A DNA stretch of 50,395 nt from a virus, in IMG/VR virus record IMGVR_UViG_3300029483_000012. One strand, given 5' to 3'. Position 1 is the first letter of the stretch. Each line of letters opens with the position of its first letter. Shown piece after piece: positions 7,605 to 42,527 of the stretch. The translations under genes and the position numbers were made by a program. A model generated the notes under the pieces. That model had not been told where the DNA came from. It was given only the letters and a program-made list of their open reading frames with translations, and ran no database searches.

Positions 7605-7919
7605 ATGCTTAACACGGAAAAAGCTGTGATCGAGATACTGCCGGGCAAGGTGGACGACAGCACGGCGCGGGAGGTATATCGAAACCTGCAAGTGCTGTAT
7701 GGGACTGTGTCCGGGGAGCAGGCGCTTGACCGGGAGTTTGGAATTGACGGCAGCATCATCGACTACCCACAGGAGAATGCGCAAGTTCTCCTGGTTGCAG
7801 AATATGTGCGCAAAACCGAACGGTATGAGCCGCGGGCAAAGGTGGCCCGCGTGGAATGGACGGGCGGAAAGGCGCAGGACGGAACTATGACCCCAAAGGT
7901 GGTGATCGAAATTGTCTAA
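7605..7919 (+). CDS. Baseplate wedge protein, GPW/gp25 family (XkdS-like)
   Basis: 104 aa. The motif GEQALDREFGIDGSIIDYP matches the gp25/GPW signature region. It lies immediately upstream of the baseplate J gene. Confidence 0.75.
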   Translation: MLNTEKAVIEILPGKVDDSTAREVYRNLQVLYGTVSGEQALDREFGIDGSIIDYPQENAQVLLVAEYVRKTERYEPRAKVARVEWTGGKAQDGTMTPKVVIEIV

Positions 7920-9763: not shown

Positions 9764-12700
9764 ATGGCCTGGTTAGGCGTAATCACGAACAACGGAAACG
9801 ACCTGCTGACCCGGTGGGTGGAGGGGAAGAACCTGCACATCACCAGAGCGGCGGCGGGGCAAGGGCGAGTGGAGCAGACCGCCATGCTGGCGCAGTCGGC
9901 TCTTGTGAACGAAAAGCAGACGGTGAGCATCGTGTCCAACACACCGGCAGAAAAGGGCCAGAGGCTCAAACTGCAAGTGACGGCACAGGCTGCGGTGGGG
10001 TACAACCTCAACCAGTTCGGCGTATGGGCGAGACTGGACGAGGAAGAAGATCAAATGATCGCCCTGTTCCAGACGGATACGGACATCGGCATTGAAATCC
10101 CGAGCAAGGAGGCCATGCCGGACTTTGTATACACATTCTACGGGCTGCTGGCATTCTCCAACCAGGGAAACCTTACGGTCAAAATTGATGCCGCCGCTGT
10201 GGTGACGGCGGAAACCATGGGACAGGCAATCGCTGAGGTCATGGGTGCCCACGCCGGAGACCGGGAGGCCCACGCGGCCTTGTTCGAGAAAAAGGCGGAT
10301 TTGGGCGCTGACAGAAAAGTGGTGATCGACCAGCTCCCTGTAAACACGCCGAACGGTGTAGCGGGGCTGGACAAGGACGGCAAGGTGAGCGCCACCCAGC
10401 TGCCGGTGAACGCACCGAACGGCATAGCGGGACTTGGCGACGACGGGAAGATTGCGGCGGCGCAGCTCCCCAGCTATGTGGATGATGTGGTGGAGGGCTA
10501 TTACCATGAGGGTGCTTTCTACTCTGACCCGGCCCACCGGGAGCAGATCACCCCGGAAAGCGGCAAGGTCTACATGGATGCGGAAACCAACATCACATAC
10601 CGGTGGAGCGGGCACAGCTATGCGCCCATCGGCTCCGACCTGGCCCTGGGCGAAACGCAGAGTACAGCCTACCGCGGTGATCGAGGCAAGATCGCATACG
10701 ACCACAGCATGACCAAGGAGGGAAACCCCCACGGAACGAAAGCCGCAGACATTGGCTATACCGACAATAAGGGGCTGGGGGCGACCAACTTGCAGGGGGC
10801 TATGGACGCAGCCGCGCAAAAAGCAACCGACGCGCAGAAGTCTGCGGACGCGGCGCTGGAAGCCATCACAAAAATTGGGCACACCATCGACGCTGTGCCC
10901 AGCCAGAACGGAACGCTGACCTATACCGGAAGCGAGCAAAGCCCGACCTGGAACAGCTATAACCCGGAGACCATGACCATGGGCGGCGTGACCAAGGGAA
11001 CGGATGCCGGGTCGTATAACGCCACATTTACCCCGAAGGAGGGGTACACCTGGGGAGACGGAACCAACGAGACAAAAACCGCAGTGTGGAAAATCGGGCG
11101 GGCCACGATCATGGCGGTGCCCAGCCAGTCCGGGGCGCTGGCCTATACCGGAAGCGCACAGACACCGGCCTGGGCCAACTACGAAAGCACAAAGCTGACC
11201 CTGGGCGGAACCACCAGCGGAACCAATGCGGGAAGCTATGAGGCGACCTTTACGCCAAAGGCCAACTACCAGTGGCAGGACGGAAGCACGACCGCAAAGA
11301 CCGCCGTATGGCGCATTGAACGGGCAAAAATCGCAGTGGTGCCCAGCCAGTCCGGGGCACTGACCTATACCGGCGGGGCGCAAAGCCCGAGCTGGAGCAA
11401 CTATGACAGCACAAAGCTGACCCTGGGCGGCACTACCAGCGGAACTGCCGCGGGCAACTACAACGCGACATTTACACCGAAAGAAAACTACCGGTGGCAG
11501 GATGGAAGTGTGACCGCCAAAAATGCGGCGTGGGCCATTCAAAAGGCGGCAGGCACGCTGGCCCTCTCCCCCACCTCCATGACCCTGGACGCCTCTGCCA
11601 AGAGCAAGAGCATCACTGTGACCAAGAACGGCACGGGGGCGGTCTCGGCCACCGCATCGCCCAGCGGCGTGGTGACGGTGAGCGTGAGCGGGAACACGGT
11701 CACGGTGACTGCCGTTAAGGACGGAAACGCCACAGTGACGGTGAATGTGGCGGCGGACGCCAACCACACCGCCCCGAGTGCAAAGACCTGTTCTGTGAAG
11801 GTGGAGATGCCGAACATCTACGGCGTGGAGTGGGACGGCACCAGCACAACGGTGTGGAGCCGGACGGATAAGGCGGCAGGCTTCACGAACCCTGTGCCCT
11901 ATGTGGCCGGGCAGAGCAAGTACGGAAGCCCGTTCGATAACCTGATGCCCTGGAGCGGGATGGTTCGGTCAAGCGACCCCGCAGCGGGCGAGCTGGTGGC
12001 TATCCCGAAATTCTGGTTCAAGTGGACAAAGAGCGGGAGCCGGTTGAAACTCCAGATCGCGGACAAGGCGACGCCGGGTTTCCATGTCTCCCCGGCCCAC
12101 GCAGACCGCGGGGACGGAAAGGGCGAGCGGAACACCGTGTACATTGGCCGGTATCACTGCCACACGAGCAACTGGAAAAGCCAGAGCGGCGGAAAGCCCA
12201 AGGCAGACATCACCCGGAGCGCGGCGCGGAGCGGTATCCACGGCCTGGGCGGCACCATCTGGCAGAGCGACATCCAAATCCGCATGACGATCTGGATGCT
12301 GTACCTGGTGGAGTTCGCAGACTGGAACAGCCAAAAGACCATCGGCAAAGGCTGCGGAGACAACAGTGCCCCCGGCAACATGGGTTATACGGATAGTATG
12401 CCGTACCATACCGGAACTACGCAGAACAGCCGGGACAGCTACGGCCTGGGCACACAGTACCGGAACATTGAGGGTCTTTGGGACAATGTATACGACTGGG
12501 GAGACGGCTGCTACTACAACAGCGCGGGGCTGAACATCATCATGAACCCCAATCAATTCAGCGACACCAGCGGGGGAACCGCCGTGGGCGTACCCACGAG
12601 CGGGTGGCCCAGTGCATTTGCGGTGGCAACGAAAAGCGGTCTGGAGTGGTGCATCTACCCCACGGCGACGGGGGGCAGTGAGACCACCTACTCGTCGGAT

Positions 12701-12847
12701 TACTGGAACTTCGGCGCGTCCTACCCGTGTCTGTGCTTCGGCGGTGGCTATTACCGGAGCGGGGACCGCGGGTTGTTCTTTGTGTACTACAATTCCGTGT
12801 CGAGCGCCGTCGCGGACATCGGCTGCCGCCTCCAAAAACTCCCCTGA
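9764..12847 (+). CDS. Tail fibre / receptor-binding protein; DGR target protein with a C-terminal C-type-lectin-like variable domain
   Basis: 1027 aa. N-terminal tail-collar-like segment, then QLPVN.PNG.AGL..DGK short repeats, 3 x 74-aa Ig-like tandem repeats and a Big_2-like segment (LALSPTSMTLDASAKSKSITV...). The C-terminal domain's last about 46 codons are the VR matching the downstream TR. Confidence 0.9.
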   Translation: MAWLGVITNNGNDLLTRWVEGKNLHITRAAAGQGRVEQTAMLAQSALVNEKQTVSIVSNTPAEKGQRLKLQVTAQAAVGYNLNQFGVWARLDEEEDQMIALFQTDTDIGIEIPSKEAMPDFVYTFYGLLAFSNQGNLTVKIDAAAVVTAETMGQAIAEVMGAHAGDREAHAALFEKKADLGADRKVVIDQLPVNTPNGVAGLDKDGKVSATQLPVNAPNGIAGLGDDGKIAAAQLPSYVDDVVEGYYHEGAFYSDPAHREQITPESGKVYMDAETNITYRWSGHSYAPIGSDLALGETQSTAYRGDRGKIAYDHSMTKEGNPHGTKAADIGYTDNKGLGATNLQGAMDAAAQKATDAQKSADAALEAITKIGHTIDAVPSQNGTLTYTGSEQSPTWNSYNPETMTMGGVTKGTDAGSYNATFTPKEGYTWGDGTNETKTAVWKIGRATIMAVPSQSGALAYTGSAQTPAWANYESTKLTLGGTTSGTNAGSYEATFTPKANYQWQDGSTTAKTAVWRIERAKIAVVPSQSGALTYTGGAQSPSWSNYDSTKLTLGGTTSGTAAGNYNATFTPKENYRWQDGSVTAKNAAWAIQKAAGTLALSPTSMTLDASAKSKSITVTKNGTGAVSATASPSGVVTVSVSGNTVTVTAVKDGNATVTVNVAADANHTAPSAKTCSVKVEMPNIYGVEWDGTSTTVWSRTDKAAGFTNPVPYVAGQSKYGSPFDNLMPWSGMVRSSDPAAGELVAIPKFWFKWTKSGSRLKLQIADKATPGFHVSPAHADRGDGKGERNTVYIGRYHCHTSNWKSQSGGKPKADITRSAARSGIHGLGGTIWQSDIQIRMTIWMLYLVEFADWNSQKTIGKGCGDNSAPGNMGYTDSMPYHTGTTQNSRDSYGLGTQYRNIEGLWDNVYDWGDGCYYNSAGLNIIMNPNQFSDTSGGTAVGVPTSGWPSAFAVATKSGLEWCIYPTATGGSETTYSSDYWNFGASYPCLCFGGGYYRSGDRGLFFVYYNSVSSAVADIGCRLQKLP
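10895..11560 (+). repeat. Three tandem 222-bp (74-aa) Ig-like repeats inside the tail fibre gene
   Basis: Units start at 10895, 11117 and 11339 (VPSQ[NS]G.L.YTG..Q.P.W.NY....T.GG.T.GT.AG.Y.ATFTPK..Y.W.DG...K.A.W.I). Confidence 0.9.
12691..12829 (+). repeat. DGR variable region (VR) at the 3' end of the tail fibre gene
   Basis: 139-nt alignment to 13143-13281 with no gaps. By hand count there are 18 mismatches. 17 of them are positions where the TR has A and the VR has G or T; one is C to T. Confidence 0.9.
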
Positions 12848-13281: not shown

Positions 13282-13560
13282 GTCCTTTTAGGACTGGCTA
13301 CCCACCTCCATTCCTCGTCGTCACAAGCTGCGGAGCGTGCGCCCCGGCCCACGGGCCAGGGCTTACTTCCTCCGCTGCTCTTCCTCTTCCTTGCAAACCC
13401 GCTGATGCTGGGCTTTGCTCGGATGGGGAGAGGCGAGGGCGTGATCTTCCTCGGCACCCCTTGGTGCAGATTAGCCAACAGGACACGGTTTAGTACACTC
13501 CCGCAACCGGCGGGAGCGGTGGAAAGATCGTGAGGCTAAAAGGAGGAGCAAACATCCTGT
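13282..13560 (+). ncRNA. Putative DGR RNA spacer between the TR and the RT gene
   Basis: No credible ORF is present. The position corresponds to the Sp segment of the BPP-1 DGR RNA. Extent and transcript ends are not determined. Confidence 0.4.
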
Positions 13561-14664
13561 ATGAAACGAGCAAAAGACCTATACCAAAAACTGATTTCAG
13601 ACGAAAATCTCAGGCTGGCAATCCTCACGGTGAACGCTACGCATAAATGGCACCCACACCACAGGCCAAATAAAACGGTGCTGCGGGTGGAGGCGGACAT
13701 CGACGGATATGTGGAGAAGCTGCGGGAGATCATCGTCAACGGATATGATGCGGCCCCACCAAGAATAGCCCGGCGCTGGGACAAGAGCGCCGGAAAATGG
13801 AGGGACATATCAGAGCCGAGATTGTGGCCTGACCAGTATGTTCACCATGCGGTCATTCAAGTTCTGGAACCGGTGCTGATGCGGGGAATGGACAAGTTCT
13901 GCTGCGGAAGTATCAAGGGCCGGGGCATCCATTACGGCGTTAAGGCAATCAAGAAATGGATGCGGACAGACCCGAAAGGGACGAAGTATGCAGAGGAGCT
14001 GGACATCCACCATTTTTACGACAGCCTGACCATTGAAACGGTGATGGCCCGCCTGCGGAGGCTGGTCAAAGACCGGAGGATGCTGGATGTATGTGAGCGG
14101 CTGATGAAGTACGGCGTCCTGATTGGCGCATTCTTCTCACAGTGGTTTGCCAACACGGTGCTGCAACCGCTTGACCAGATGATACGGAACAGCGGGCTGT
14201 GTGACCACTATATGCGGTACATGGACAACCTGACGCTGTTCGGGCGGAACAAAAGGAAACTGCGAAAGCTGCGGGGCATGATCGAGGATTGGCTTGCAGG
14301 CCGCCGGTTGAAGCTAAACAACAAGTGGCAGCTCTATCCGACGGCAAAGCGGACGGTGGCGGCGCTGGGATACCGGTTCGGCCATAAGTTTTCCCTGCTG
14401 CGAAAGCGGAATATGGTGCGGTTGAAAAAGTCGCTATCAGAATGTTATCGGGCCATGCGGAAACACCGGAAGATCAGGCCGAAGCTGGCACAGGGCCTAT
14501 TGTCACGGTTGGGCCAAATGAAGCACTGCAACCATGTACATTTCTTTGAGAAGTATGTGGAAACAGGGCTGCAACGAAAATTGAAGCTCGTGGTAAGAGA
14601 GCATACGAGAAAGGAGCAGGCAAGATGGAATATGTGTACGGAACCGCTGAAATCGACGGCGTGA
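13561..14664 (+). CDS. DGR-type reverse transcriptase
   Basis: 367 aa. RT motifs read by eye: RDISEP...D.YVHHAV, SIKGRGIHYG, LDIHHFYDS, VLIGAFFSQ (the DGR-typical [ILV]GxxxSQ), YMRYMDNLTLFG (YMDN in place of YxDD) and LGYRF. It sits directly after the TR. Confidence 0.9.
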   Translation: MKRAKDLYQKLISDENLRLAILTVNATHKWHPHHRPNKTVLRVEADIDGYVEKLREIIVNGYDAAPPRIARRWDKSAGKWRDISEPRLWPDQYVHHAVIQVLEPVLMRGMDKFCCGSIKGRGIHYGVKAIKKWMRTDPKGTKYAEELDIHHFYDSLTIETVMARLRRLVKDRRMLDVCERLMKYGVLIGAFFSQWFANTVLQPLDQMIRNSGLCDHYMRYMDNLTLFGRNKRKLRKLRGMIEDWLAGRRLKLNNKWQLYPTAKRTVAALGYRFGHKFSLLRKRNMVRLKKSLSECYRAMRKHRKIRPKLAQGLLSRLGQMKHCNHVHFFEKYVETGLQRKLKLVVREHTRKEQARWNMCTEPLKSTA

Positions 14665-16082: not shown

Positions 16083-17570
16083 GTGCTGAACGGCAGGAAC
16101 AATGAGGAAAAAATCTGGAACTACCTGAAAGGCGCAGGGTTAAACGACTGTGGAGCCGCTGGGCTGATGGGAAACCTGTATGCAGAAAGCGGCCTGCGAC
16201 CGGACAACCTGCAAAACACCTACGAACAAAAGCTGGGTATGACGGACACCTCATACACGGCGGCGGTTGACGGAGGAACCTATACCGGGTTCGTGCGGGA
16301 CTGCGCCGGTTATGGGCTGGCACAGTGGACTTACTGGAGCCGGAAACAGGGACTTTTCAATTTTGCCAAGGCGGCGGGCCGGAGCATCGGAGACATGGAG
16401 ATGCAGCTTGATTTCCTGATGAAAGAGCTGCGTGAGGGTTACAAAGCTGTTCTGACCACGCTGAAAACGGCGGGAAGCGTCCGGCAGGCATCAGATGCAG
16501 TCATGCTGCAATTTGAGCGCCCGGCAGATCAGAGCGAGACGGCGAAAAAGCGCCGGGCCTCGTTCGGGCAGAAGTATTATGACAGGTACGCAAAACCCAA
16601 GGAGGGACAAGCTGTGGGAACATTCAAGCCGAGACTGACCCGACCGGAGGCGGGCAACAAATATTACATCACCAAGGCGAGCGGAGGATGGTCGGACGCC
16701 ATCAAGGGAAAGCCGGTGGACGCGCTGTGCAACACCCTTTCCAACTGCGTGGGCTATGCCTATGGGCGATTTAATGAGATCGGCGGTTACGGGTGCTGTA
16801 AATATCTGCGGCCCGTGAACGCCGAAAACTTTATCCAGTTTGCCGGGGGCCTGGCCGTAGGTCAGGAGCCGAAGCTGGGGGCCTGCATGGTGTGGCGCAA
16901 GGGGGCGACGCTGAACGGTTCGGATGGAGCGGGCCATGTGGCAATCGTGGAGCAGATTATCAGTGCAACTGAGATCGTGACCAGCGAAAGCGGATACGGA
17001 AGCAAAACCCCGTTCTGGACAAAGCGCCGGAAGAAAGGCACAGGGAACTGGGGAGCCGGGAGCGGGTACACTTTCCTGGGCTTTATCTATAACCCGGCTG
17101 TGAGCGGAAGCACCACGACAACCCCGGCACCGAACCCACCGACAACCGGAGGCGCAACCGAAGCGCTGAAATACAAGGTGGGCCAGATGGTGCAATCTCT
17201 GGCGAAGAAGCACTACACCAGCTCCAATGCGGCGACGGGAAAGAACTGCAAGCCGTGCGAGGCAAAGGTGACGGCCATCAATCCGGGAAGCAAGCACCCC
17301 TATCATGTGGTGGGCACTTCTGTGTATGGATGGGTAGACGAGGACGACATCGCGGCCACGGCATCTGCTGACACTGCCCTTGCCGTGGGCGACCGGGTGA
17401 AGATGGACAAGTCGGCAACGATTTACGGCACCATGCGCAAGTTTACTGCATGGGTGTATGCCACAAAGCTGTATGTGCGCGGCATTGACGGGAACCGCGT
17501 GGTGGTATCCACGCTGAAAAGCGGGGCTATCACCGGTGCGGTTGACAAGAAGCATTTGACGAAAGTGTAA
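16083..17570 (+). CDS. Multidomain endolysin: phage-lysozyme-like N-domain, CHAP/NlpC-P60-like peptidase and two SH3-like wall-binding repeats
   Basis: 495 aa, GTG start after AAAGGAGGG. N-domain motif GAAGLMGNLYAESGLRP...GYGLAQWTYWSRK. Peptidase Cys in SNCVGYAYGR and His in GHVAIVEQI. A TTTTPAPNPPTTGG linker precedes two C-terminal repeats. Confidence 0.8.
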   Translation: MLNGRNNEEKIWNYLKGAGLNDCGAAGLMGNLYAESGLRPDNLQNTYEQKLGMTDTSYTAAVDGGTYTGFVRDCAGYGLAQWTYWSRKQGLFNFAKAAGRSIGDMEMQLDFLMKELREGYKAVLTTLKTAGSVRQASDAVMLQFERPADQSETAKKRRASFGQKYYDRYAKPKEGQAVGTFKPRLTRPEAGNKYYITKASGGWSDAIKGKPVDALCNTLSNCVGYAYGRFNEIGGYGCCKYLRPVNAENFIQFAGGLAVGQEPKLGACMVWRKGATLNGSDGAGHVAIVEQIISATEIVTSESGYGSKTPFWTKRRKKGTGNWGAGSGYTFLGFIYNPAVSGSTTTTPAPNPPTTGGATEALKYKVGQMVQSLAKKHYTSSNAATGKNCKPCEAKVTAINPGSKHPYHVVGTSVYGWVDEDDIAATASADTALAVGDRVKMDKSATIYGTMRKFTAWVYATKLYVRGIDGNRVVVSTLKSGAITGAVDKKHLTKV

Positions 17571-17975: not shown

Positions 17976-19357
17976 ATTATACACGCAACAGTGAAAATAA
18001 CTATTGCGGAACGGGAAAATATTGGGTATCATAAGGGTGTAAAATGCGACAAAACAAGACAAGCGGAACGGAACCGGGAAACCGGAAACCGCCCGCAGGG
18101 ATGCACGGAAGGAGGTATTACAGTGCAGGCCAAGGAGCGCACATTTAAGCACCTGACAAAGAACGACAGGCTGAGAATGGAACGGTGGCTGAACAAAGGG
18201 ATGAAGCCGAGAGAGATTGCAGATAAGCTGCGCGTCCACATCTCCACCGTCTACCGGGAATTGAAGCGGGGAGAATATGAGCGGCTGGATGGGGACACCT
18301 GGGAGATGGTGACGGCGTACAGCCCGGACATCGCAGAGGAGCGGTATCAAAATCACTTACGGGAAAAAGGGCCAGACTTGAAGATTGGAGCAGATCACGA
18401 ATTGGCCCGATACATCGAGGAGACGATCATCGCCAACGATTGCAGCCCTGCCGCTGTACTGGGGTATGCAAAGATGGAGGGCCGGACATTCAAGACCTCT
18501 GTTTCCGTAGCAACCATTTACAGCTATATCAAAAAAGGGATATTCCTGCGTATCACACAGGTGGATTTGCCGCGGCGCGGGAAGAAAAAGCAGGGGTACA
18601 AAAAGGTAAAGACAAGGAAAGACCAGGCCAGGGCATCTGCCGGTGAGAGCATCGAACGCAGACCGGAGAGAGTAAAGAACCGGGAGGAGTTTGGGCACTG
18701 GGAAATGGATACGGTGTACAATAAAAAGGATAGTACCAGCAAGGCGCTTCTGGTACTGACCGAGAGAAAGACCCGGCGGGAGATCATCATACTGATACCG
18801 AACCGCAAAGCGGAGACCATTGTTAAAGCATTGGACGCACTGGAGCGGAAAATCGGAGCAGTGAATTTCAGGAAGATTTTTAGAACGATTACGGTTGATA
18901 ACGGCTCTGAGTTCTCGGCGGCGGAGGAGATGGAGCGCAGCGCTGTCAACAAGACCATCCCCCGGACAAAGGTTTATTTCTGCCACCCCTATTCATCGTG
19001 GGAGCGCGGGAGCAACGAAAACGCCAACATTATGATTAGGCGGAAACACCCCAAGGGAACCGACTTTGAAAAGGTGAGCGCAAGACAGATCGCCGAGACC
19101 GAACAATGGATAAACAACTACCCCCGGAAGATACTGGGGTATATAAGTAGCGAAGTGGCTTTCCGGGCCTGCTTGCGGGAGATAGGGCTATCGGCGTAGG
19201 CCGGATGGGACGCATGGGAGAAAGGGGGAAACTGGAGGGGGCATGAGGAACATAATAAGGAAAAGCGGAGGCTGCCGACCAAGGGAATTGACGGCGGCCA
19301 TATTGTCATGTTAAAATTAGACAAAATAAAAGGTGAAAATTTGTGCGCAATAAATGC
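17976..19357 (+). mobile_element. IS30-family element (boundaries approximate; inverted repeats not resolved by eye)
   Basis: The segment contains a complete IS30-type DDE transposase gene and looks more AT-rich than the flanks. It is bounded by the lysis terminator on one side and the early promoter on the other. Confidence 0.6.
18123..19199 (+). CDS. IS30-family DDE transposase
   Basis: 358 aa counted from GTG 18123 (GGAAGGAGG RBS). N-terminal HTH (REIADKLRVHISTVYRELKRG). DDE triad contexts GHWEMDTV, ITVDNGSEF and WERGSNENANIMIRR. Confidence 0.9.
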   Translation: MQAKERTFKHLTKNDRLRMERWLNKGMKPREIADKLRVHISTVYRELKRGEYERLDGDTWEMVTAYSPDIAEERYQNHLREKGPDLKIGADHELARYIEETIIANDCSPAAVLGYAKMEGRTFKTSVSVATIYSYIKKGIFLRITQVDLPRRGKKKQGYKKVKTRKDQARASAGESIERRPERVKNREEFGHWEMDTVYNKKDSTSKALLVLTERKTRREIIILIPNRKAETIVKALDALERKIGAVNFRKIFRTITVDNGSEFSAAEEMERSAVNKTIPRTKVYFCHPYSSWERGSNENANIMIRRKHPKGTDFEKVSARQIAETEQWINNYPRKILGYISSEVAFRACLREIGLSA

Positions 19358-33928: not shown

Positions 33929-34039
33929 GGTGGAAACCTCCCTGTTTTGGATTTGGGTTTTGGCCCATGAGCGCCCCCGCCCTGGTGGGAGCGGGGCCGG
34001 GCTTGCACCGGCGGCGCGTTTTGCGTCGGCCTTGCGGGT

Positions 34040-34201
34040 TTACAGTTTGAGAAGCCGCCGGGCGGTGTCCTCGTCGATGTAGTTTGACCATCCGGCGCGG
34101 TGAAGCTCCTCGGCGGCTTGGGAAAGGGTAATCGTGCCGTTCTGGACATCCTCGCGCAGACTATCCAGAATATTTTTGATGGGGAACGGCTCTTTGCGCA
34201 T
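34040..34201 (-). CDS. Small hypothetical protein (53 aa)
   Basis: MRKEPFPIKNILDSLREDVQNGTITLSQAAEELHRAGWSNYIDEDTARRLLKL with an AAGGAG RBS. Below the ORF-track size cutoff. Confidence 0.5.
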   Translation of the reverse strand: MRKEPFPIKNILDSLREDVQNGTITLSQAAEELHRAGWSNYIDEDTARRLLKL

Positions 34202-34243
34202 GGTATCAGCTCCTTTTTGGGTTTTGTGGTTTGGCCCTGTGGC

Positions 34244-34289
34244 CTGGGGCCGGGTCGCTTTGTCCGGTGCGGCCCGCTAAGGTGTCCGG
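34244..34289. repeat. Intergenic repeat, copy A
   Basis: ctggggccgggtcgctttgtccggtgcggcccgctaaggtgtccgg. It differs from copy B at 1 of 46 positions by eye. Confidence 0.9.
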
Positions 34290-34970: not shown

Positions 34971-35065
34971 TTTGTGCGCCTCCATTTTGTTTCTGGCCTG
35001 CCATCATCAGCGCCGGGCGGCCATTCCCGGCGGACGGCCACAGCGGGCCGTTTCGGCGTTGTGCG

Positions 35066-35950: not shown

Positions 35951-36000
35951 GCTGATAACCTCCAGATCATCTGTTTTTTCTTGTGTGGCCCGGTGTCGGG

Positions 36001-36046
36001 CTGGGGTCGGGTCGCTTTGTCCGGTGCGGCCCGCTAAGGTGTCCGG
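36001..36046. repeat. Intergenic repeat, copy B
   Basis: ctggggtcgggtcgctttgtccggtgcggcccgctaaggtgtccgg, directly after the stop of the 36055 gene. Confidence 0.9.
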
Positions 36047-36557: not shown

Positions 36558-36591
36558 GCACTTTTTCGCAATTTTTTTCGGGGGCTGGGGG

Positions 36592-36616
36592 TTCCCCCTA
36601 CGGGGGAAATTTTTTT
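36592..36616 (+). terminator. Plus-strand terminator-like hairpin (ttccccc-tac-gggggaa plus T7)
   Basis: 7-bp GC stem followed by AAT and seven T. No plus-strand gene lies upstream, so its role is unclear. Confidence 0.45.
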
Positions 36617-36635
36617 GAACCGCCCCGCCGGGGCG

Positions 36636-37002: not shown

Positions 37003-37016
37003 TAGGGCCAAAACCG

Positions 37017-37057
37017 TTCCCCCGTCCCCCTTTAGGGGGGACTGGGGAAGTTTTTTT
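37017..37057 (+). terminator. Plus-strand rho-independent terminator
   Basis: ttcccccgtccccc pairs with ggggggactggggaa (13 pairs, one mismatch) and is followed by G plus seven T. Confidence 0.6.
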
Positions 37058-37226
37058 GCACAAATTTCCGGGGTGATTTTTTGTGGAAAATGCTGTGTTT
37101 GGGGGATTATAGGGGGCGTATATATCCAGGCTATCAAGATACCAGACCGGGCGCATAAAACCCTCCGCCGGGCGGCTGGGCATGATCGGCGGAAGAACGG
37201 CGGCGGGCAGGAACCGGGGCAGGACG

Positions 37227-37304
37227 GGCGGCAGATCAGCGGGAGACGGCGGCAGATCGGGCCGGGGGTGGCATGGTGTGAGCCGGAACCGTGGGCGGCA
37301 GATC
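37227..37304. repeat. Three copies of the 11-mer GGCGGCAGATC (iteron-like; each contains GATC)
   Basis: Exact copies at 37227-37237, 37248-37258 and 37294-37304. Confidence 0.9.
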
Positions 37305-37356
37305 GTCGCCGTGGTGGCTGCGGCCTATGCGGGCGCGGGCGGTGGGGCGCACTCAT

Positions 37357-37533
37357 GCAGGCCCAGGGGCAGCGCAAGCCGCCAGCAGGCAGAGGGGCAG
37401 CAGAAGCAGCAACCAGGAGCCGCCAGCCGGGAGACCGGACAGCAACCACCGCACCAGGCAGGGACAGCCCACCACCAGCGGGAGCGGAACAGGAAACCAA
37501 CGCCAGCACCAACGCCAGCGGCCAGGCCGAAGA
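37357..37533 (+). other. 177-nt tract with no T on the plus strand (no A on the minus strand), inside a T-poor segment of about 440 nt
   Basis: Base-by-base scan: the last T before the tract is at 37356 and the next T is at 37534. All six frames are open simply because no stop codon can be formed. Confidence 0.9.
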
Positions 37534-37822
37534 TCACACCAAACGCGCCCGCGCCCTCGCCCGCCCGCGCGAAGTCGGAACGCCCGCGCCCGCGAAAGGT
37601 ACTGCTGGGCCGCAGGCCAAGCCTTGCGGGTTCGGAAGCGCAAAATTTTTTTAGGTAAGGGGTCAAAAAATCGCTTCCCTGGGGCCGGGCCGGGAAATAG
37701 TTAGGGGGTCAAAAATGCGACAAACGGGAGCGGATGAGCGAGCAAGACATAAAAAATCCCCCATGAGCTATGCGATGGATAGCACAAGAGGGAAATGAAT
37801 AAGGAATTATTTTGAAAAGCAC

Positions 37823-37851
37823 TTTTATTTTGCGACAATATGCGATATAAT
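37823..37851 (+). promoter_or_regulatory. Candidate promoter with a perfect TATAAT -10 and a weak -35 in an AT-rich context
   Basis: TATAAT at 37846-37851. The hexamer 17 nt upstream is TTTTAT. Confidence 0.4.
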
Positions 37852-37857
37852 ACAGAG

Positions 37858-38064
37858 GCCAAACCAATCTGAATAATTGCGCAAACAAAATCCAAAGGGG
37901 TTACTATACCCTTTTGGGTATTCGCCTATGCGAACAGAGTGAATTTGATAAAATGCAAATTCCGTTTCTGTTCGTATGGGGAAACCCGTTTGCGCAGATT
38001 GGTTTGGCGACTATCGGAGTTTGTGTTTTTGTGCGGCTGCTTCGGTAGCCGCACTTTTTATTTT
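37858..38064 (+). ncRNA. Highly structured leader RNA / candidate riboregulator or sRNA upstream of the lipoprotein gene
   Basis: The outer helix pairs 37858-37870 with 37996-38008 (13 bp) and 37879-37886 with 37988-37995 (8 bp). Inner hairpins lie at 37892-37917 and 37931-37974 (8 + 7 bp). A UUCG-loop terminator follows at 38031-38064. Confidence 0.5.
38031..38064 (+). terminator. Rho-independent terminator with a UUCG tetraloop, between the structured leader and the lipoprotein RBS
   Basis: gtgcggctgc-ttcg-gtagccgcac (10 pairs, one G-T) followed by TTTTTATTTT. Confidence 0.75.
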
Positions 38065-38086
38065 ATACAAAGGGGGTTGCGACGCA

Positions 38087-39130
38087 GTGAAAACAAAAAG
38101 AGGAATGGTACTTCTACTATTTATGGGAACGCTCCTTTTGCTTATGTCTGGGTGCGGAGCAAAATATGAAAATCCAGCTGACCTTCCGTTTGGAAGTGAT
38201 GGGTGGCAGATGCAAACGGCGGGAGAGGCCATAGAAGCTCTGTCCGCAGCCGGATTTACCAATATTCAGGAGAACATAAAGGAAACAAGTTCTGCTGATG
38301 ATGCGGGAAAAATCACAAAGATAACTGTGAACGGTGAAAACCTGTTCCGCAAAGGAGACCGGCACGAGGGAACCGATGTGGTGGAGATCACATATTATTC
38401 CTTGAAACGGTACGAGACAGAAATGGAAATCGAAGTGTCGGGAGATGCGGGGCTGCCGGTGTTCACAGTGAACACGAACCTGCCGAACGGGACAAGACTG
38501 GAATTGAAGCTGAGCAACGAGGAGAGCTATTCTGAGCAGCAGACAGTAAAGGTTAAGGACGGGCAGGCTGTCAGTGATATATTTTGGGATAATGGGCATT
38601 ACCTGCTTGGGGAATACACGCTGTCTGTGGTCATGAAGCCGGAAGATCAGAACGCAAGTGTGCAATATGAAATTGGAAAAAACGGAGAAGCCATGACAGG
38701 GCCGCTGGTACATATAGACGAAAACGATGCGGGTAAATACTTGCTCCTGGAGGATGGCTACACCTCGAACTATACAGAGCCAGAAAAAATCAGTGAAGAT
38801 GAACTGCGGGAGCGCTTTGCACAGGCGCTATCTGGCTTTGGAAACGACTATGAGATTGACTTAGAGGGGTATGTGTACACCGTGAGCGTGTGGCAGGACG
38901 GCTTGGCAGCTTGTGCGATACTGGCGGAGCAAGGAGTGCCGACCGCGGTAGAACAGTGGGGGGAGATTGTGGACACAACGGCGGAAGCGTCCAACAGCCT
39001 GCAAGAGCTACTGAGTATTAGCGGGTATGGCGATTACATGGTGCAAATAGAGGTCTTGAATGACCAGAACCATGAAAACACCTTGCTGACAGTACTCCTG
39101 GGGATGGTGTCATACAACTGCGTCTCTTGA
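38087..39130 (+). CDS. Secreted lipoprotein (moron), candidate superinfection-exclusion factor
   Basis: 347 aa counted from GTG 38087 (ATG 38105 is an alternative start). Signal peptide KTKRGMVLLLFMGTLLLLMSGC with the lipobox LMSGC. The gene is visibly more AT-rich than the neighbouring phage genes. Confidence 0.75.
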   Translation: MKTKRGMVLLLFMGTLLLLMSGCGAKYENPADLPFGSDGWQMQTAGEAIEALSAAGFTNIQENIKETSSADDAGKITKITVNGENLFRKGDRHEGTDVVEITYYSLKRYETEMEIEVSGDAGLPVFTVNTNLPNGTRLELKLSNEESYSEQQTVKVKDGQAVSDIFWDNGHYLLGEYTLSVVMKPEDQNASVQYEIGKNGEAMTGPLVHIDENDAGKYLLLEDGYTSNYTEPEKISEDELRERFAQALSGFGNDYEIDLEGYVYTVSVWQDGLAACAILAEQGVPTAVEQWGEIVDTTAEASNSLQELLSISGYGDYMVQIEVLNDQNHENTLLTVLLGMVSYNCVS

Positions 39131-39249
39131 AAAATTTTGGGAGTTAGCAACTTTCGCAGGTTTTCTGTGTTAATATCATAGTGTGCAATAAAGCCCGTGG
39201 CGGAAACGCTGCGGGCTTTGCCGTTGGATGCGCCCTGCGCAAGCCGAAG

Positions 39250-39276
39250 CCCTGCGTACCTACGCGGGGTATTTTT
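39250..39276 (+). terminator. Rho-independent terminator downstream of the lipoprotein gene
   Basis: ccctgcgta / tacgcgggg stem followed by TATTTTT. An additional hairpin lies at 39190-39219. Confidence 0.55.
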
Positions 39277-39316
39277 GTAGGCTGCGCCGGGGCGCACGAT
39301 TATTTGGAGGTGTGAA

Positions 39317-40090
39317 ATGCCGAAGCGGAGCGAAAAGCGCGACACCGCCAAGGCTGAATACATCGCCCGAAAAGCGAGGGGCGAGGAAGTAAGCCTGCGG
39401 GAGCTGGCAAAAGAGCAAGGCGTGGGCTATCAAACGCTGCGTAACTGGAAAGCGGCGGACAAGTGGGACGAGGCGCTGCCCAAAAGAAAGCGGGGCGGCC
39501 AGCCGGGGAACCGGAACAGCGCCGGGAAACAGAACGCCGCAGGGAGCCATCCGGGCGCACCGGTCGGGAATAAGAACGCGGAGAAGGACGGAGCGTACAG
39601 CGCCGTCTTTTTTGATATGCTGACGGACTGCGAGCGGGAGCTTGTGGAGCAAACGCCGCTGAAAAGCAAAGAGGCCCTGGGGCATGAAATGAAAATCCTG
39701 AAATTCCGGGAACACAAGATACTGGCGAAGATTGCCGAGTATGAAAGTGCCCCGGAAGATAGTCTGTATATCTCCAGCCTGATGGACATGAGAGTGCCGG
39801 GTGGGCGGGGAAAGGACAAAAAGGACGGGGCTGTGCAGAGCATGGGAATGTACAGCAAGGACAGCGCATTTAGTCGGGCACTGAAATTGCAGGAGGCGCT
39901 TTACAAGGTGCAGGGCCGTATTGCCAAGATCGCAGACAGCCTGCGGGCGCTGGAGGAAAGCGAGCGGCGCATGGAGCTGGAGCGGGAACGCTTGGCGCTG
40001 CTGCGGATGCGGGCCACCGGCGCGGTGGATGTACCAGACCCAGAAATGAGCGGAGAGAGCTTTGCCGATGGCGGAGAGGAGGAAGCATGA
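39317..40090 (+). CDS. terS: Terminase small subunit-like protein (YjcR-type, GNKNA repeats)
   Basis: 257 aa. N-terminal HTH-like segment (SLRELAKEQGVGYQTLRNW) followed by GGQPGNRNSAGKQNAAGSHPGAPVGNKNA. Confidence 0.7.
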   Translation: MPKRSEKRDTAKAEYIARKARGEEVSLRELAKEQGVGYQTLRNWKAADKWDEALPKRKRGGQPGNRNSAGKQNAAGSHPGAPVGNKNAEKDGAYSAVFFDMLTDCERELVEQTPLKSKEALGHEMKILKFREHKILAKIAEYESAPEDSLYISSLMDMRVPGGRGKDKKDGAVQSMGMYSKDSAFSRALKLQEALYKVQGRIAKIADSLRALEESERRMELERERLALLRMRATGAVDVPDPEMSGESFADGGEEEA

Positions 40091-40572: not shown

Positions 40573-40714
40573 AAATCCATGCGAGGGATGCGTGTGGCCT
40601 GCATACGCCGAGGGAAACAAAGTCCTCTGCCCATTCCAGCGCTGTGTGAGAAAGGAATATGAACGGCTGTGGCTGGAACGGAAAGAAGAACATGAAAAAG
40701 AGAAAGATCATTGA
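40553..40714 (+). CDS. Possible small zinc-finger protein overlapping the terminase gene junction
   Basis: 53 aa (MEKKRNKNPCEGCVWPAYAEGNKVLCPFQRCVRKEY...). Weak RBS. It overlaps both neighbouring genes. Confidence 0.3.
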   Translation: MEKKRNKNPCEGCVWPAYAEGNKVLCPFQRCVRKEYERLWLERKEEHEKEKDH

Positions 40715-42527
40715 TCTGCCAAAGCCCACCATGGATATGCTGGCCCGGTGCGCGGCGGTGCTGAAACCACCACCGGAGCTGACCCTTTCAGAGTGGGCGG
40801 ACAAATACCGGGTGCTGTCGGCGGAGAGCAGCGCAGAGCCGGGCCGCTGGCACACGGATAAGGCCCCATATCAGCGGGAGATCATGGACGCCATCGGAGA
40901 CCCGCACATCCGCAAGGTAGTCATTATGAGTGCCGCGCAGATCGGAAAGACCGATGCGTTTATTCTGAACCCGCTGGGGTACTACATGGATTACGCCCCG
41001 GCCCCTATCCTGGTGATGCAGCCGACGCTTGACATGGGACAGACTTTTTCCAAAGACCGGCTGGCCCCAATGATACGGGACACGCCGGAGCTGCGGGACA
41101 AGGTGGATGTCAAGAGCCGGTACAGCGGCAACACCATCATGAAGAAAAATTTCCCCGGCGGGCACATCACCATCGTAGGCGCGAACAGCGCCACGGGCCT
41201 TGCCAGCCGCCCGATCAAGGTTCTGCTGGCGGACGAGGTTGACCGCTATCCGGCCAGCGCCGGAACAGAGGGCGACCCTTTGAGCCTGGCACAGAAGCGG
41301 CAGACGACCTTTTGGGACAAGAAAACCGTGATCGTCAGCACGCCGGTTATCAAAGGGCAGAGCCGCATCGAAACAGAGTTCGAGCAAAGCACGAAAGAGG
41401 AATGGAATGTGCCGTGCCCAGACTGCGGGCATTACCAGCCGTTCGTGTGGGCCAATGTGATCTTTGACCGGGAGAACCCGCAGGGAGAGGTGCTGTACAA
41501 GTGCGAGCGGTGCGGGGTGGTATCCGGGGAATATCAGTGGAAGCAGGCGAGCAAGCGGGGGCAGTTCGTGGCAGAAAATCCGGCGGCGGAGGCCAGAGGT
41601 TTCCACCTGAATACGCTGGCATCCACCTTCTGCTCCTGGAAAGAGATCGTCCAAAAGTTCCTTGTGGCAAAAGAACAGCTTGACCAGGGAAACCCGGAGG
41701 GCATGAAAGTTTGGGTGAACACGGAGCTGGGCGAGACCTGGGAGGAGCGGGGCGAGCAGGTGGAGGACACTGTGCTGCTGAACCGCAGAGAGGTTTACGA
41801 TGCGGATGTGCCGGACGGGGTGCTGGTGCTGACAGCGGGCGTGGATGTCCAGGACGACCGGTTTGAGGTGGAAGTGGTCGGCTGGGGTGTCGGGAAGGAG
41901 AGCTGGGGCATACGGTATCAGAAAATTTACGGCGATATGCTCAAAGAACAGGTATGGCAAGACCTAGACGCTTTTCTGCTTTCCGGTTTCAAGAAAAAGG
42001 ACGGAACGACGCTGCATATCATAAGCGCCTGCGTTGACAGCGGCGGCCACCATACCGATCAGGTTTATCGCTTCACCAGAGACCGGTGGGAAAGAAAAGT
42101 GTGGGCCATCAAAGGAAAGGGCGGCAGCGATGTGCCATACATCCGAAACCCGACTACGAACAACCGCGTAAAAACGCCGCTGTTCATCATCGGCGTGGAC
42201 GCAGGAAAAGCGCTGCTATATCAGCGGCTCAGGCATGAGACCAAGGGGCCGAACTACTGCCACTTCCCGGAGAATGAGGCGGCGGGATATGACGAGGAAT
42301 ACTTTCGGGGCCTTACTGCGGAGAAGATGGTGGTACGGTTCCGAAAGGGGCGGAGCGTGGTTGTGTGGGAGCTGAAAGACAGTAAGCACAAGCGGAACGA
42401 ACCGCTTGACCTGCGCAATTACGCCACGGCGGCGCTGGAAATCGCAAACCCGGTGCTGCAAATGACGGACGGAGTGCCGCAGCCGAGGAAGCGGCAGGCG
42501 GGCCGCCGGATGCGAGGAGGTATATAA
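40692..42527 (+). CDS. terL: Terminase large subunit, lambda gpA family
   Basis: 611 aa counted from ATG 40692 (40659 and 40731 are alternative starts). LTLSEWADKYRVLSAESSAEPGRWHTDKAPYQREIMDAIGDPHIRKVVIMSAAQIGKTD parallels the gpA N-terminus and Walker A region. Confidence 0.9.
   Translation: MKKRKIIDLPKPTMDMLARCAAVLKPPPELTLSEWADKYRVLSAESSAEPGRWHTDKAPYQREIMDAIGDPHIRKVVIMSAAQIGKTDAFILNPLGYYMDYAPAPILVMQPTLDMGQTFSKDRLAPMIRDTPELRDKVDVKSRYSGNTIMKKNFPGGHITIVGANSATGLASRPIKVLLADEVDRYPASAGTEGDPLSLAQKRQTTFWDKKTVIVSTPVIKGQSRIETEFEQSTKEEWNVPCPDCGHYQPFVWANVIFDRENPQGEVLYKCERCGVVSGEYQWKQASKRGQFVAENPAAEARGFHLNTLASTFCSWKEIVQKFLVAKEQLDQGNPEGMKVWVNTELGETWEERGEQVEDTVLLNRREVYDADVPDGVLVLTAGVDVQDDRFEVEVVGWGVGKESWGIRYQKIYGDMLKEQVWQDLDAFLLSGFKKKDGTTLHIISACVDSGGHHTDQVYRFTRDRWERKVWAIKGKGGSDVPYIRNPTTNNRVKTPLFIIGVDAGKALLYQRLRHETKGPNYCHFPENEAAGYDEEYFRGLTAEKMVVRFRKGRSVVVWELKDSKHKRNEPLDLRNYATAALEIANPVLQMTDGVPQPRKRQAGRRMRGGI

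Follow-up and report, generated by a model that had tools for sequence, protein, structure and literature searches.

The DNA analysed here, in the following called the window, is a stretch of 50,395 nt of phage DNA (IMG/VR record IMGVR_UViG_3300029483_000012); all coordinates are those of the whole stretch and refer to the + strand unless stated otherwise. Our subject is a leader RNA of about 200 nt, the multi-helix and very stable core of which covers 37858-38008. A sigma-A-type promoter (37823-37851) precedes it. On its 3' side follow an intrinsic terminator (38031-38064), a Shine-Dalgarno (SD) motif AAGGGGG, as read from the sequence (38070-38076), and the gene that would be served by this motif (38087-39130). 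The gene starts with GTG and encodes a lipoprotein of 347 amino acids (MKTKRGMVLLLFMGTLLLLMSGC...) that has no confident family assignment; a family search yielded just a sub-threshold match to PASTA. Promoter, RNA, terminator and gene together fill a variable slot of the phage genome. The RNA belongs to a large family, which probably acts in cis as attenuator of the transcription of the next gene.

The core is closed by the helices P1, in which 37858-37870 pair with 37996-38008 (13 bp; the repeat finder reports 14 nt with 100% complementarity), and P1b, in which 37879-37886 pair with 37988-37995 (8 bp). The 5' strands of the two are separated by an asymmetric internal loop, GAAUAAUU (37871-37878; family consensus nAAUAn). 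Enclosed are the hairpin P2 (37890-37919), which has 12 bp, the loop UACUAU and the family consensus GGGnnAnUAUACCCUUUU, and the long hairpin P3 (37921-37983). The latter is built from a lower stem of 15 bp (37925-37939 with 37966-37980) and an apical stem of 7 bp (37941-37947 with 37956-37962), which carries an A-rich loop (37948-37955); the apical motif UGAAUUUGAUAAAAAUGCAAAUUCC is conserved across the family. Behind the core lies a switching linker of 22 nt, GACUAUCGGAGUUUGUGUUUUU (38009-38030), which is complementary to the apical region of P3 and to the terminator as well. A small alternative hairpin (38000-38003 with 38010-38013, loop UUGGCG) competes with P1. The terminator shows all that is expected of an intrinsic one: a stem of 10 bp, 7 of them G-C (38031-38040 with 38045-38054), a UUCG loop and then TTTTTATTTT, the U-tract occupying 38055-38064. 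The minimum free energy (MFE) of 37855-38075 is -101.3 kcal/mol, as compared to -55.7 ± 4.1 kcal/mol for dinucleotide shuffles (z = -11.2), and none of 200 such shuffles was as stable as the native fold.

Much of this had already been proposed in a preliminary description of the locus. The closing helix (confirmed by the repeat finder), a perfect TATAAT at 37846-37851, the terminator with its UUCG loop and T-rich tail, and the ribosome-binding site and GTG of the lipoprotein gene just behind it are indeed there. Both of its enclosed hairpins exist, yet the lower stem of the second comprises 15 bp instead of the 8 assumed. An alternative ttcgc/gcgaa pairing at 37921-37934 is present in the sequence but neither in the MFE fold nor in the family consensus.

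The promoter of the window combines a weak -35 box, TTTTAT (37823-37828), with TGCG at 37841-37844, which is similar to the TRTG of extended -10 elements, and the perfect -10 hexamer. The position weights of 69 family members (TTGAca at -35 to -30; TRTGnTATAAT with the hexamer at -12 to -7) are those of a sigma-A/sigma-70 promoter. In 52 of these 69 copies the spacer between the -10 box and G1, the first base of P1, is 6 nt, and in 41 a TG is found at -15/-14. Because the -10 box keeps this fixed distance to G1 across the family, transcription in the window would start at G37858. The RNA, as we infer its ends, would begin inside P1 and stop at the terminator after about 205 nt. A start near 37858, as had been anticipated, is in line with these promoter positions.

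Homologues were retrieved by scanning public collections with short patterns from the element. The patterns matched 12 IMG/VR contigs and, among the matches listed, more than 120 contigs of human-gut metagenomes. Separate searches added two contigs of metagenome-assembled genomes (Acutalibacter and Clostridiales) and two unannotated GenBank scaffolds termed 'Bacteriophage sp.'. Altogether, at least 108 distinct copies were collected, 69 of them with less than 93% similarity. Among cultured phages and plasmids no homologue was found except these two scaffolds, which are of human faecal origin. In a metagenome contig (L103), Gut-1 RNA (Rfam RF01706, function unknown; 7632-7726) lies some 600 nt upstream of the family member.

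That the fold is not a recognised riboswitch class had been said before, and Rfam 15 bears this out. With 37823-38086 as query nothing reached the gathering threshold; at E ≤ 10 the best match was L20_leader with 23.5 versus 58.7 bits. Ten other family members yielded the same weak matches to L20_leader only (20-23.5 bits), mostly over the terminator, and a scan of 10 further loci gave no match at the element. Keyword searches of the literature retrieved no description, and the linker string was absent from full texts; two linker strings were not found in the first 200 of the 408 supplementary files of one large csRNA catalogue. There are large catalogues of unnamed candidate RNAs from the gut and from viruses (PMC8040213, PMC10690425), where the family may be listed without a name. 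It is a large family outside every Rfam 15 model, within a known kind of regulator.

Covariation was analysed in a model-fitted alignment of 70 non-redundant copies (A6; the E-values come from a quick calibration and are rough). Standard pairs make up 94.6% of its cells, versus 75.6% in shuffles and 33-44% when the partners are slid. Double changes occur in 38 of the 51 pairs, and P1, P1b, P2, the lower stem of P3 and the terminator all covary, so that the conservation of the helices, on which the preliminary description had made its proposal depend, is evident in these homologues. Position 8 of P1, for instance, is UA in 26 copies, CG in 22 and AU in 20, and position 11 is CG in 29, UA in 27 and AU in 9. 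A check of P1 without alignment agrees (one pair: UA 25, CG 22, AU 18), and in locus L211 the base of the helix reads GUCACAC/GUGUGAC. P1b (helix 2) has double changes at 8 of its 8 pairs, with a compensatory exchange of G-C for A-U in the sibling locus L018. The pairs in the lower stem of P3 (helices 4 and 5) occur in 4-5 types and are intact to 95-96%; in the terminator stem (helix 7), 98.4% of the cells are paired, with double changes in 9 of 10 pairs. Even the small hairpin contains a covarying pair (AU 27, GU 22, UA 17), which is C-G in L211. Taking G.U and U.G together, 340 cells are of this type, versus 51 for A.C plus C.A. This excess implies that the structure is read as RNA of the + strand and is not a palindrome of double-stranded DNA.

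The linker has two conserved, mutually exclusive partners, the apical region of P3 and the terminator. With the first of them, the apical loop and 3' strand of P3 (37948-37964), nucleotides 38015-38030 form an anti-antiterminator of 15 bp plus A37948-U38030; in the family, the length is 15-17 bp. This pairing excludes the apical stem of P3. The duplex is worth -16.9 kcal/mol here and -19.1 kcal/mol in the family mean, to be compared with -6.8 kcal/mol for shuffled linkers and -4.1 kcal/mol for the apical hairpin. Its cells are paired to 95%, versus 28-59% in slid controls. A distal pair outside the search pattern (226-431) is AU in 39 copies, GC in 11, UA in 5 and UG in 3, and the lengths of the A-run in P3 and of the U-run in the linker vary together across the family.

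The second partner leads to an antiterminator (38011-38048), in which 38011-38020 pair with 38039-38048 (10 bp) and 38024-38026 with 38033-38035 (3 bp); 38039-38048 comprise the last part of the terminator's 5' arm, its loop and the first part of its 3' arm. In the window it amounts to -14.8 kcal/mol versus -19.9 kcal/mol for the terminator; the family means are -15.7 and -16.0 kcal/mol, respectively. Among the structures without the terminator it ranks first in 70 of 70 copies. In 32 of these it equals or surpasses the terminator in stability, and in 60 the two lie within 3 kcal/mol of each other. Its cells are paired to 92.6% (20-48% in slid controls), and double changes are seen at 4 pairs. 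Compensatory changes include G-C to A-U at 418-443 and A-U to G-C at D9; counted without an alignment, the individual positions are paired to 75-100%. The need of each to satisfy two partners explains the conservation of the linker, of the apical motif and even of the CUUCGG loop. Judged from its sequence, the element thus appears to follow the logic of riboswitch-type attenuation, with a domain in the 5' untranslated region (UTR), a terminator and an antiterminator that exclude each other, and a shared strand that couples the two parts.

What the RNA is coupled to can be seen in 112 distinct copies with enough flanking sequence. In 87 of these (78%) a co-oriented open reading frame (ORF) with an SD motif starts at a median distance of 20 nt past the U-tract (interquartile range 14-25), a gap that leaves no room for a separate promoter of the downstream gene; in 13 the gene starts slightly further away, and 12 have none. 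Of course, an RNA with a strong conserved promoter and a strong terminator, both ends of which are protected in helices, could also be a stand-alone small RNA (sRNA) of about 205 nt that acts in trans, the linker being its seed or a protein-binding site and the downstream genes living on leaky read-through. The very conserved linker, which is invariant between the window and L018, would fit this idea. So would the roughly 11% of the copies that have no co-oriented gene within 200 nt, a few of which precede a convergent gene or tmRNA; they imply that the RNA can exist on its own. A promoter-less gene regularly placed some 20 nt behind the U-tract, however, is not what one expects of an sRNA. 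Moreover, the linker finds both partners within its own RNA, the terminator being one of the two, and this is the signature of a switch in cis. No target in trans was identified. The conservation of both the antiterminator and the anti-antiterminator favours an attenuator in cis over a pure sRNA, and we consider the latter unlikely. The preliminary description had offered both, an attenuating leader or riboswitch and an sRNA of about 200 nt, and the sequence of promoter, structured domain, terminator and gene from which it had argued is well supported.

The region might also be taken for a coding one. A frame is open from ATG 37976 into the lipoprotein gene, and a GGAG in the linker lies 11-12 nt before a conserved (G/A)UG that opens the terminator stem and could start a leader peptide. 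However, more than 80 proteins unrelated to one another are encoded behind the same nucleotides, and indels of 1 nt occur in the linker, the U-runs of which comprise 5 or 6 residues. The signal peptide of the lipoprotein starts at GTG 38087 behind a good SD motif, and the putative mini-ORF has neither a conserved stop nor a conserved length. Translation from ATG 37976, which the preliminary description had named as a finding that would speak against an RNA, is thereby ruled out, and the chance that the region is coding at all is practically negligible. The leader peptide was dropped for lack of conservation, as was a role of P2 as an anti-SD element.

The surroundings of the element were compared with 69 loci of related phages, which were found via the small terminase. 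Homology of the phage backbone reaches up to about 37723 and resumes at 39130, which defines 37724-39129 as a variable cargo slot, a moron-like cassette of promoter, leader RNA, terminator and lipoprotein gene. The slot has a G+C content of 0.41-0.53, versus about 0.60 in the phage, and sits where leftward and rightward genes diverge. Two siblings, L007 and L059, are 98% identical in both flanks, yet carry a different insert of 1046 nt without the RNA; it contains an HTH gene and a second gene that by eye is DUF4236-like. A covariance model detected the RNA among the terS loci of sibling phages in the window's clade and in L018 only. In L018, where the lipoprotein homologue is 38% identical, the RNA agrees with that of the window throughout its 3' half, the linker and the terminator. 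In three more distant siblings (L085, L086 and L088) the same RNA occupies the same slot, and a zinc-ribbon membrane protein replaces the lipoprotein; their homology with the window breaks at 38074, directly after the terminator. With its own promoter, its insertion between genes that are adjacent in siblings and its atypical composition, the cassette bears the hallmarks of a phage moron. A terminator dedicated to the cassette was not found 3' of the lipoprotein gene; the next hairpins (39249-39296) are those of a conserved DUF3800-VIII RNA.

The proteins encoded behind the RNA are of many kinds. A lipobox-like signal is seen in 38 of 84 distinct ones, and a transmembrane-like or hydrophobic segment in 23 others. 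A comparison of 66 complete cargo proteins with Pfam yielded 34 unrelated families, none of them in more than 3 members; BspA-type leucine-rich repeats, SHOCT, zinc ribbons, SPFH, ABC ATPases and an EcoRI-like methylase are among the matches. A few cargo proteins match defence models (UzuA, type II methyltransferase). In L153 and L200 the cargo (284 amino acids, MPIYLNEILNIAKDDY...) apparently matches the UzuA model of the Uzume anti-phage defence, as assigned by eye, and some cargo therefore seems to consist of defence genes. All-against-all clustering of the neighbours revealed no conserved partner gene, the largest clusters being generic ABC ATPases or cargo, and no conserved motif, be it attC-like or a second repeat, was found 3' of the cargo gene. 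About 10 of 70 loci are located within 1 kb of a tRNA or tmRNA (coordinates read by eye), which fits the ends of integrated elements but is not general. The lipoprotein gene is just one of the many different genes that the RNA accompanies.

A variable slot of atypical composition, functionally heterogeneous cargo and, in the window, a terminator clearly stabler than the antiterminator would also be compatible with a plain moron unit. There, a constitutive promoter, a stabilising structure at the 5' end and a leaky insulating terminator would fix cargo expression at a low level, with no switching in response to a signal. Such a unit leaves unexplained why the linker has two conserved exclusive partners with energies balanced in 60 of 70 copies, and why loops and junctions are so strongly conserved. 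We hold it to be improbable.

Downstream of the element and on its strand follow terS (39317) and terL (40659), and two more terminator-like hairpins are found at 39249-39296. The element might therefore be the leader of the late operon, subject to a processive antiterminator, in which case transcription from 37858 would drive terS, terL and the structural genes. Models would be the put RNA of HK022, which modifies RNA polymerase, or the lambda PR'-6S RNA-tR' leader with Q. Only L018, however, carries the element among 64 related terS loci scanned, although the late genes are common to them, and most family members are found in non-phage contexts ahead of single genes. This makes a late-operon leader very improbable.

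We thus prefer to see in the family leaders of about 200 nt, located close to their promoters, which attenuate the transcription of the next gene in cis, and would put the probability of this reading at roughly 60%. It builds on what is observed directly: the position of the promoter, the helices, both alternative pairings with their energies, the coupling to a gene and the mobility of the cassette. The events may be pictured as follows. Transcription would start from the sigma-A promoter at G37858, and the nascent RNA would fold into the long closing helix P1/P1b and a three-way junction with P2 and P3. P3 would then use its A-rich apical loop and its 3' strand to sequester the emerging linker (37948-37964 with 38015-38030). 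In this default state the UUCG terminator could form, and most transcripts would stop there, leaving a stable RNA of about 205 nt, the two ends of which are paired in helices. If, by contrast, the apical hairpin of P3 were kept closed or occupied, the free linker would pair via 38011-38020 with 38039-38048, and transcription would read through into the promoter-less lipoprotein gene. Candidates for keeping the hairpin closed are a ligand, a protein, an RNA in trans or an inversion of the core. What we infer is in which order the RNA folds, which way the switch turns, that a trigger exists and of what kind it may be.

Several observations weigh against the attenuator. Most homologues were pulled out by a pattern that lies inside the linker; its conservation is therefore partly achieved by construction, and the covariation that can become visible in both alternative helices is limited. 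The alignment A6 was fitted to the model structure. With 21 perfect base pairs in the window, P1/P1b is far stabler than a typical ligand-gated P1. The lengths of the P1 and P3 arms, compared as a test for a tertiary contact by length covariation, did not correlate. The terminator of the window surpasses the antiterminator by 5 kcal/mol, and some copies have no co-oriented gene. Finally, the downstream genes lack any functional coherence, which is unusual for a metabolite riboswitch.

An exceptional copy, L084 (3653-3856 of IMGVR_UViG_3300010346_002427), lends support to the logic of the switch. Between its intact P1 arms the core is inverted, whereas promoter, linker and terminator stay as they are elsewhere in the family; both strands are matched by the covariance model. 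The partner for the anti-antiterminator is lost, and the antiterminator reaches -18.3 kcal/mol versus -14.8 kcal/mol for the terminator. L084 is predicted to be locked ON.

The same copy raises the question of a phase switch by DNA inversion, in which the P1 arms would be inverted repeats and a flip of the core, by removing the anti-antiterminator, would turn the gene ON. Inversion switches of this kind operate in the 5' UTRs of cwpV and flgB of Clostridioides difficile. As there, a segment flanked by inverted repeats lies between a promoter and the gene of a surface protein, its orientation would decide on termination in the leader, and one inverted copy is at hand; many cargo genes indeed encode surface proteins. 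Unlike there, the terminator is outside the repeats, and no recombinase gene is linked to the element or consistently found nearby. Just 1 of 114 distinct copies is inverted, with 109 forward orientations versus 1 among assembled contigs. The arms, further, behave as an RNA helix: they covary, with G.U tolerated and A.C not (pair 7: UG 12, CA 0), their sequences differ in L211 and L212, and the helices of the core are conserved as RNA in one orientation. In view of the single inverted copy, programmed inversion is treated here as a minor rival or an additional layer, not as the main mechanism; as an explanation of its own it has a slim chance.

One might go a step beyond attenuation in cis and regard the family as a new riboswitch-like class of RNA dedicated to acquired cargo genes (surface, membrane, defence) in Firmicutes of the gut and in their phages. 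Such a class would react to a signal that keeps the apical hairpin of P3 closed, and could also be flipped at the DNA level between the P1 arms into a locked-ON state. The signal might be a second messenger, a protein of host or phage, or the RNA of another copy. This extended view is tentative, and we would rather bet against it than on it.

The design has relatives. Attenuating riboswitches and leaders of Firmicutes, such as the T-box or the L20 leader (RF00558), likewise place a promoter-proximal sensor ahead of a terminator, an antiterminator and an anti-antiterminator with shared strands, and then an SD motif. The present family, however, is not matched by a covariance model, the L20_leader hits staying at 20-23.5 versus 58.7 bits and mostly on the terminator; the 21-bp closing helix, the heterogeneous accessory genes and the mobility of the whole unit set the family apart as well. 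Phage morons and the PR'-6S RNA-tR' unit of lambda resemble it in that a promoter of their own yields a short transcript, terminated just before an accessory gene; insertion between genes adjacent in siblings and atypical composition are further common features. The lambda leader, however, depends on the Q protein and has no conserved fold, whereas here conservation extends to the RNA fold itself, which has a switch of its own and is encountered outside phages as well.

Another parallel is a published set of functionally unassigned RNA motifs from Firmicutes and phage-related DNA, whose folds are complex, well conserved and closed by a Rho-independent terminator at the 3' end. According to the paper, they are rarely found in 5' UTRs, whereas this family is there in about 80-90% of its copies, and none of the Rfam models of that set matches it. 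Conserved complementary segments that control premature termination are also known from the leader-encoded immunity RNAs of P4 (CI) and P1/P7 (c4), the C4 family of Rfam. The principle of mutually complementary leader segments is the same; the present RNA, however, has no match to C4 in sequence or structure and would, as we read it, act in cis.

Other candidates were rejected. A retron RNA is at odds with the functionally unrelated downstream genes and with the distance of 24 kb to the reverse transcriptase of the window. For a type III antitoxin tandem repeats are missing, and the downstream genes again are unrelated. A phi29-type pRNA does not go along with a terminase of the GpA type. Integron attC sites and the ends of IS200/IS605 elements were discarded because of the context and because their defining features are missing.

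The phage that harbours the element has a GpA-type large terminase (40659-42527), small terminase genes at 39317 and 40087, an ArdC-like early gene, an endolysin, a reverse transcriptase of the type found in diversity-generating retroelements, and several ribozymes or RNA motifs. The DUF3800-VIII RNA (39229-39296, +), which contains two terminator-like hairpins, separates the cargo slot from the small terminase gene. At the same place it recurs in 5 of 8 sibling loci scanned (L007, L016, L017, L018 and L030), and no adjacent DUF3800 gene was seen. On the other side of the slot, 37182-37650 has a G+C content of 0.74, is purine-skewed and lacks a convincing ORF; many sibling IMG/VR contigs end at the equivalents of 37329-37600. 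This region may be the genome terminus, i.e., a cos region in view of the GpA-type terminase, or one that breaks assemblies. Just upstream of the slot there is a direct repeat of 18 nt, TAGGTAAGGGGTCAAAAA (37652-37669) and TAGTTAGGGGGTCAAAAA (37698-37715); similar motifs of G-runs and A-runs occur at 36590-36620 and 37010-37060.

Interspersed with the leftward early genes is a cluster of motifs of the self-cleaving ribozyme type (33958-34042, 34238-34289, 34992-35058 and 35995-36046, all on the - strand), which comprises a twister-sister, two RAGATH-5 and a type II hammerhead; RAGATH-5 recurs in 6 of 8 sibling loci scanned, and a twister-sister match in one (L040). An RT-18 RNA motif (13455-13545, +) lies directly upstream of the reverse transcriptase gene (13561-14664, +), beside a large tail-fibre-like gene (9764-12847), an arrangement that resembles a diversity-generating retroelement. 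An IS30-like transposase (HTH_38 plus rve; 17991-19199, +) has its gene between that of the endolysin (16083-17570) and one with a dUTPase domain. A related phage, L072 (IMGVR_UViG_3300044856_000079), is also exactly 50395 nt long; megablast did not match it to the window, and blastn aligned short stretches of 72-82% identity.

The family merits an entry in the RNA family databases, since at present the annotation is either blank or ORF callers read through the element, as at ATG 37976. If attenuation holds true, it would be a well-populated and strongly covarying candidate for a new class of riboswitch or riboregulator with a clear design of terminator, antiterminator and anti-antiterminator. 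One portable RNA module would then govern diverse accessory genes of human-gut Firmicutes and of the phages that lysogenise them, among them lipoproteins, small membrane proteins, BspA-like surface proteins and some anti-phage defence. This would provide a handle on the timing with which the cargo of prophage 'morons' and islands is expressed. As related phages lose their homology exactly where the RNA ends, it could also serve as a marker for hotspots of cargo exchange. Should the more far-reaching combination of riboswitch and inversion prove correct, a single mobile unit would unite the logic of a riboswitch with that of an invertible switch.

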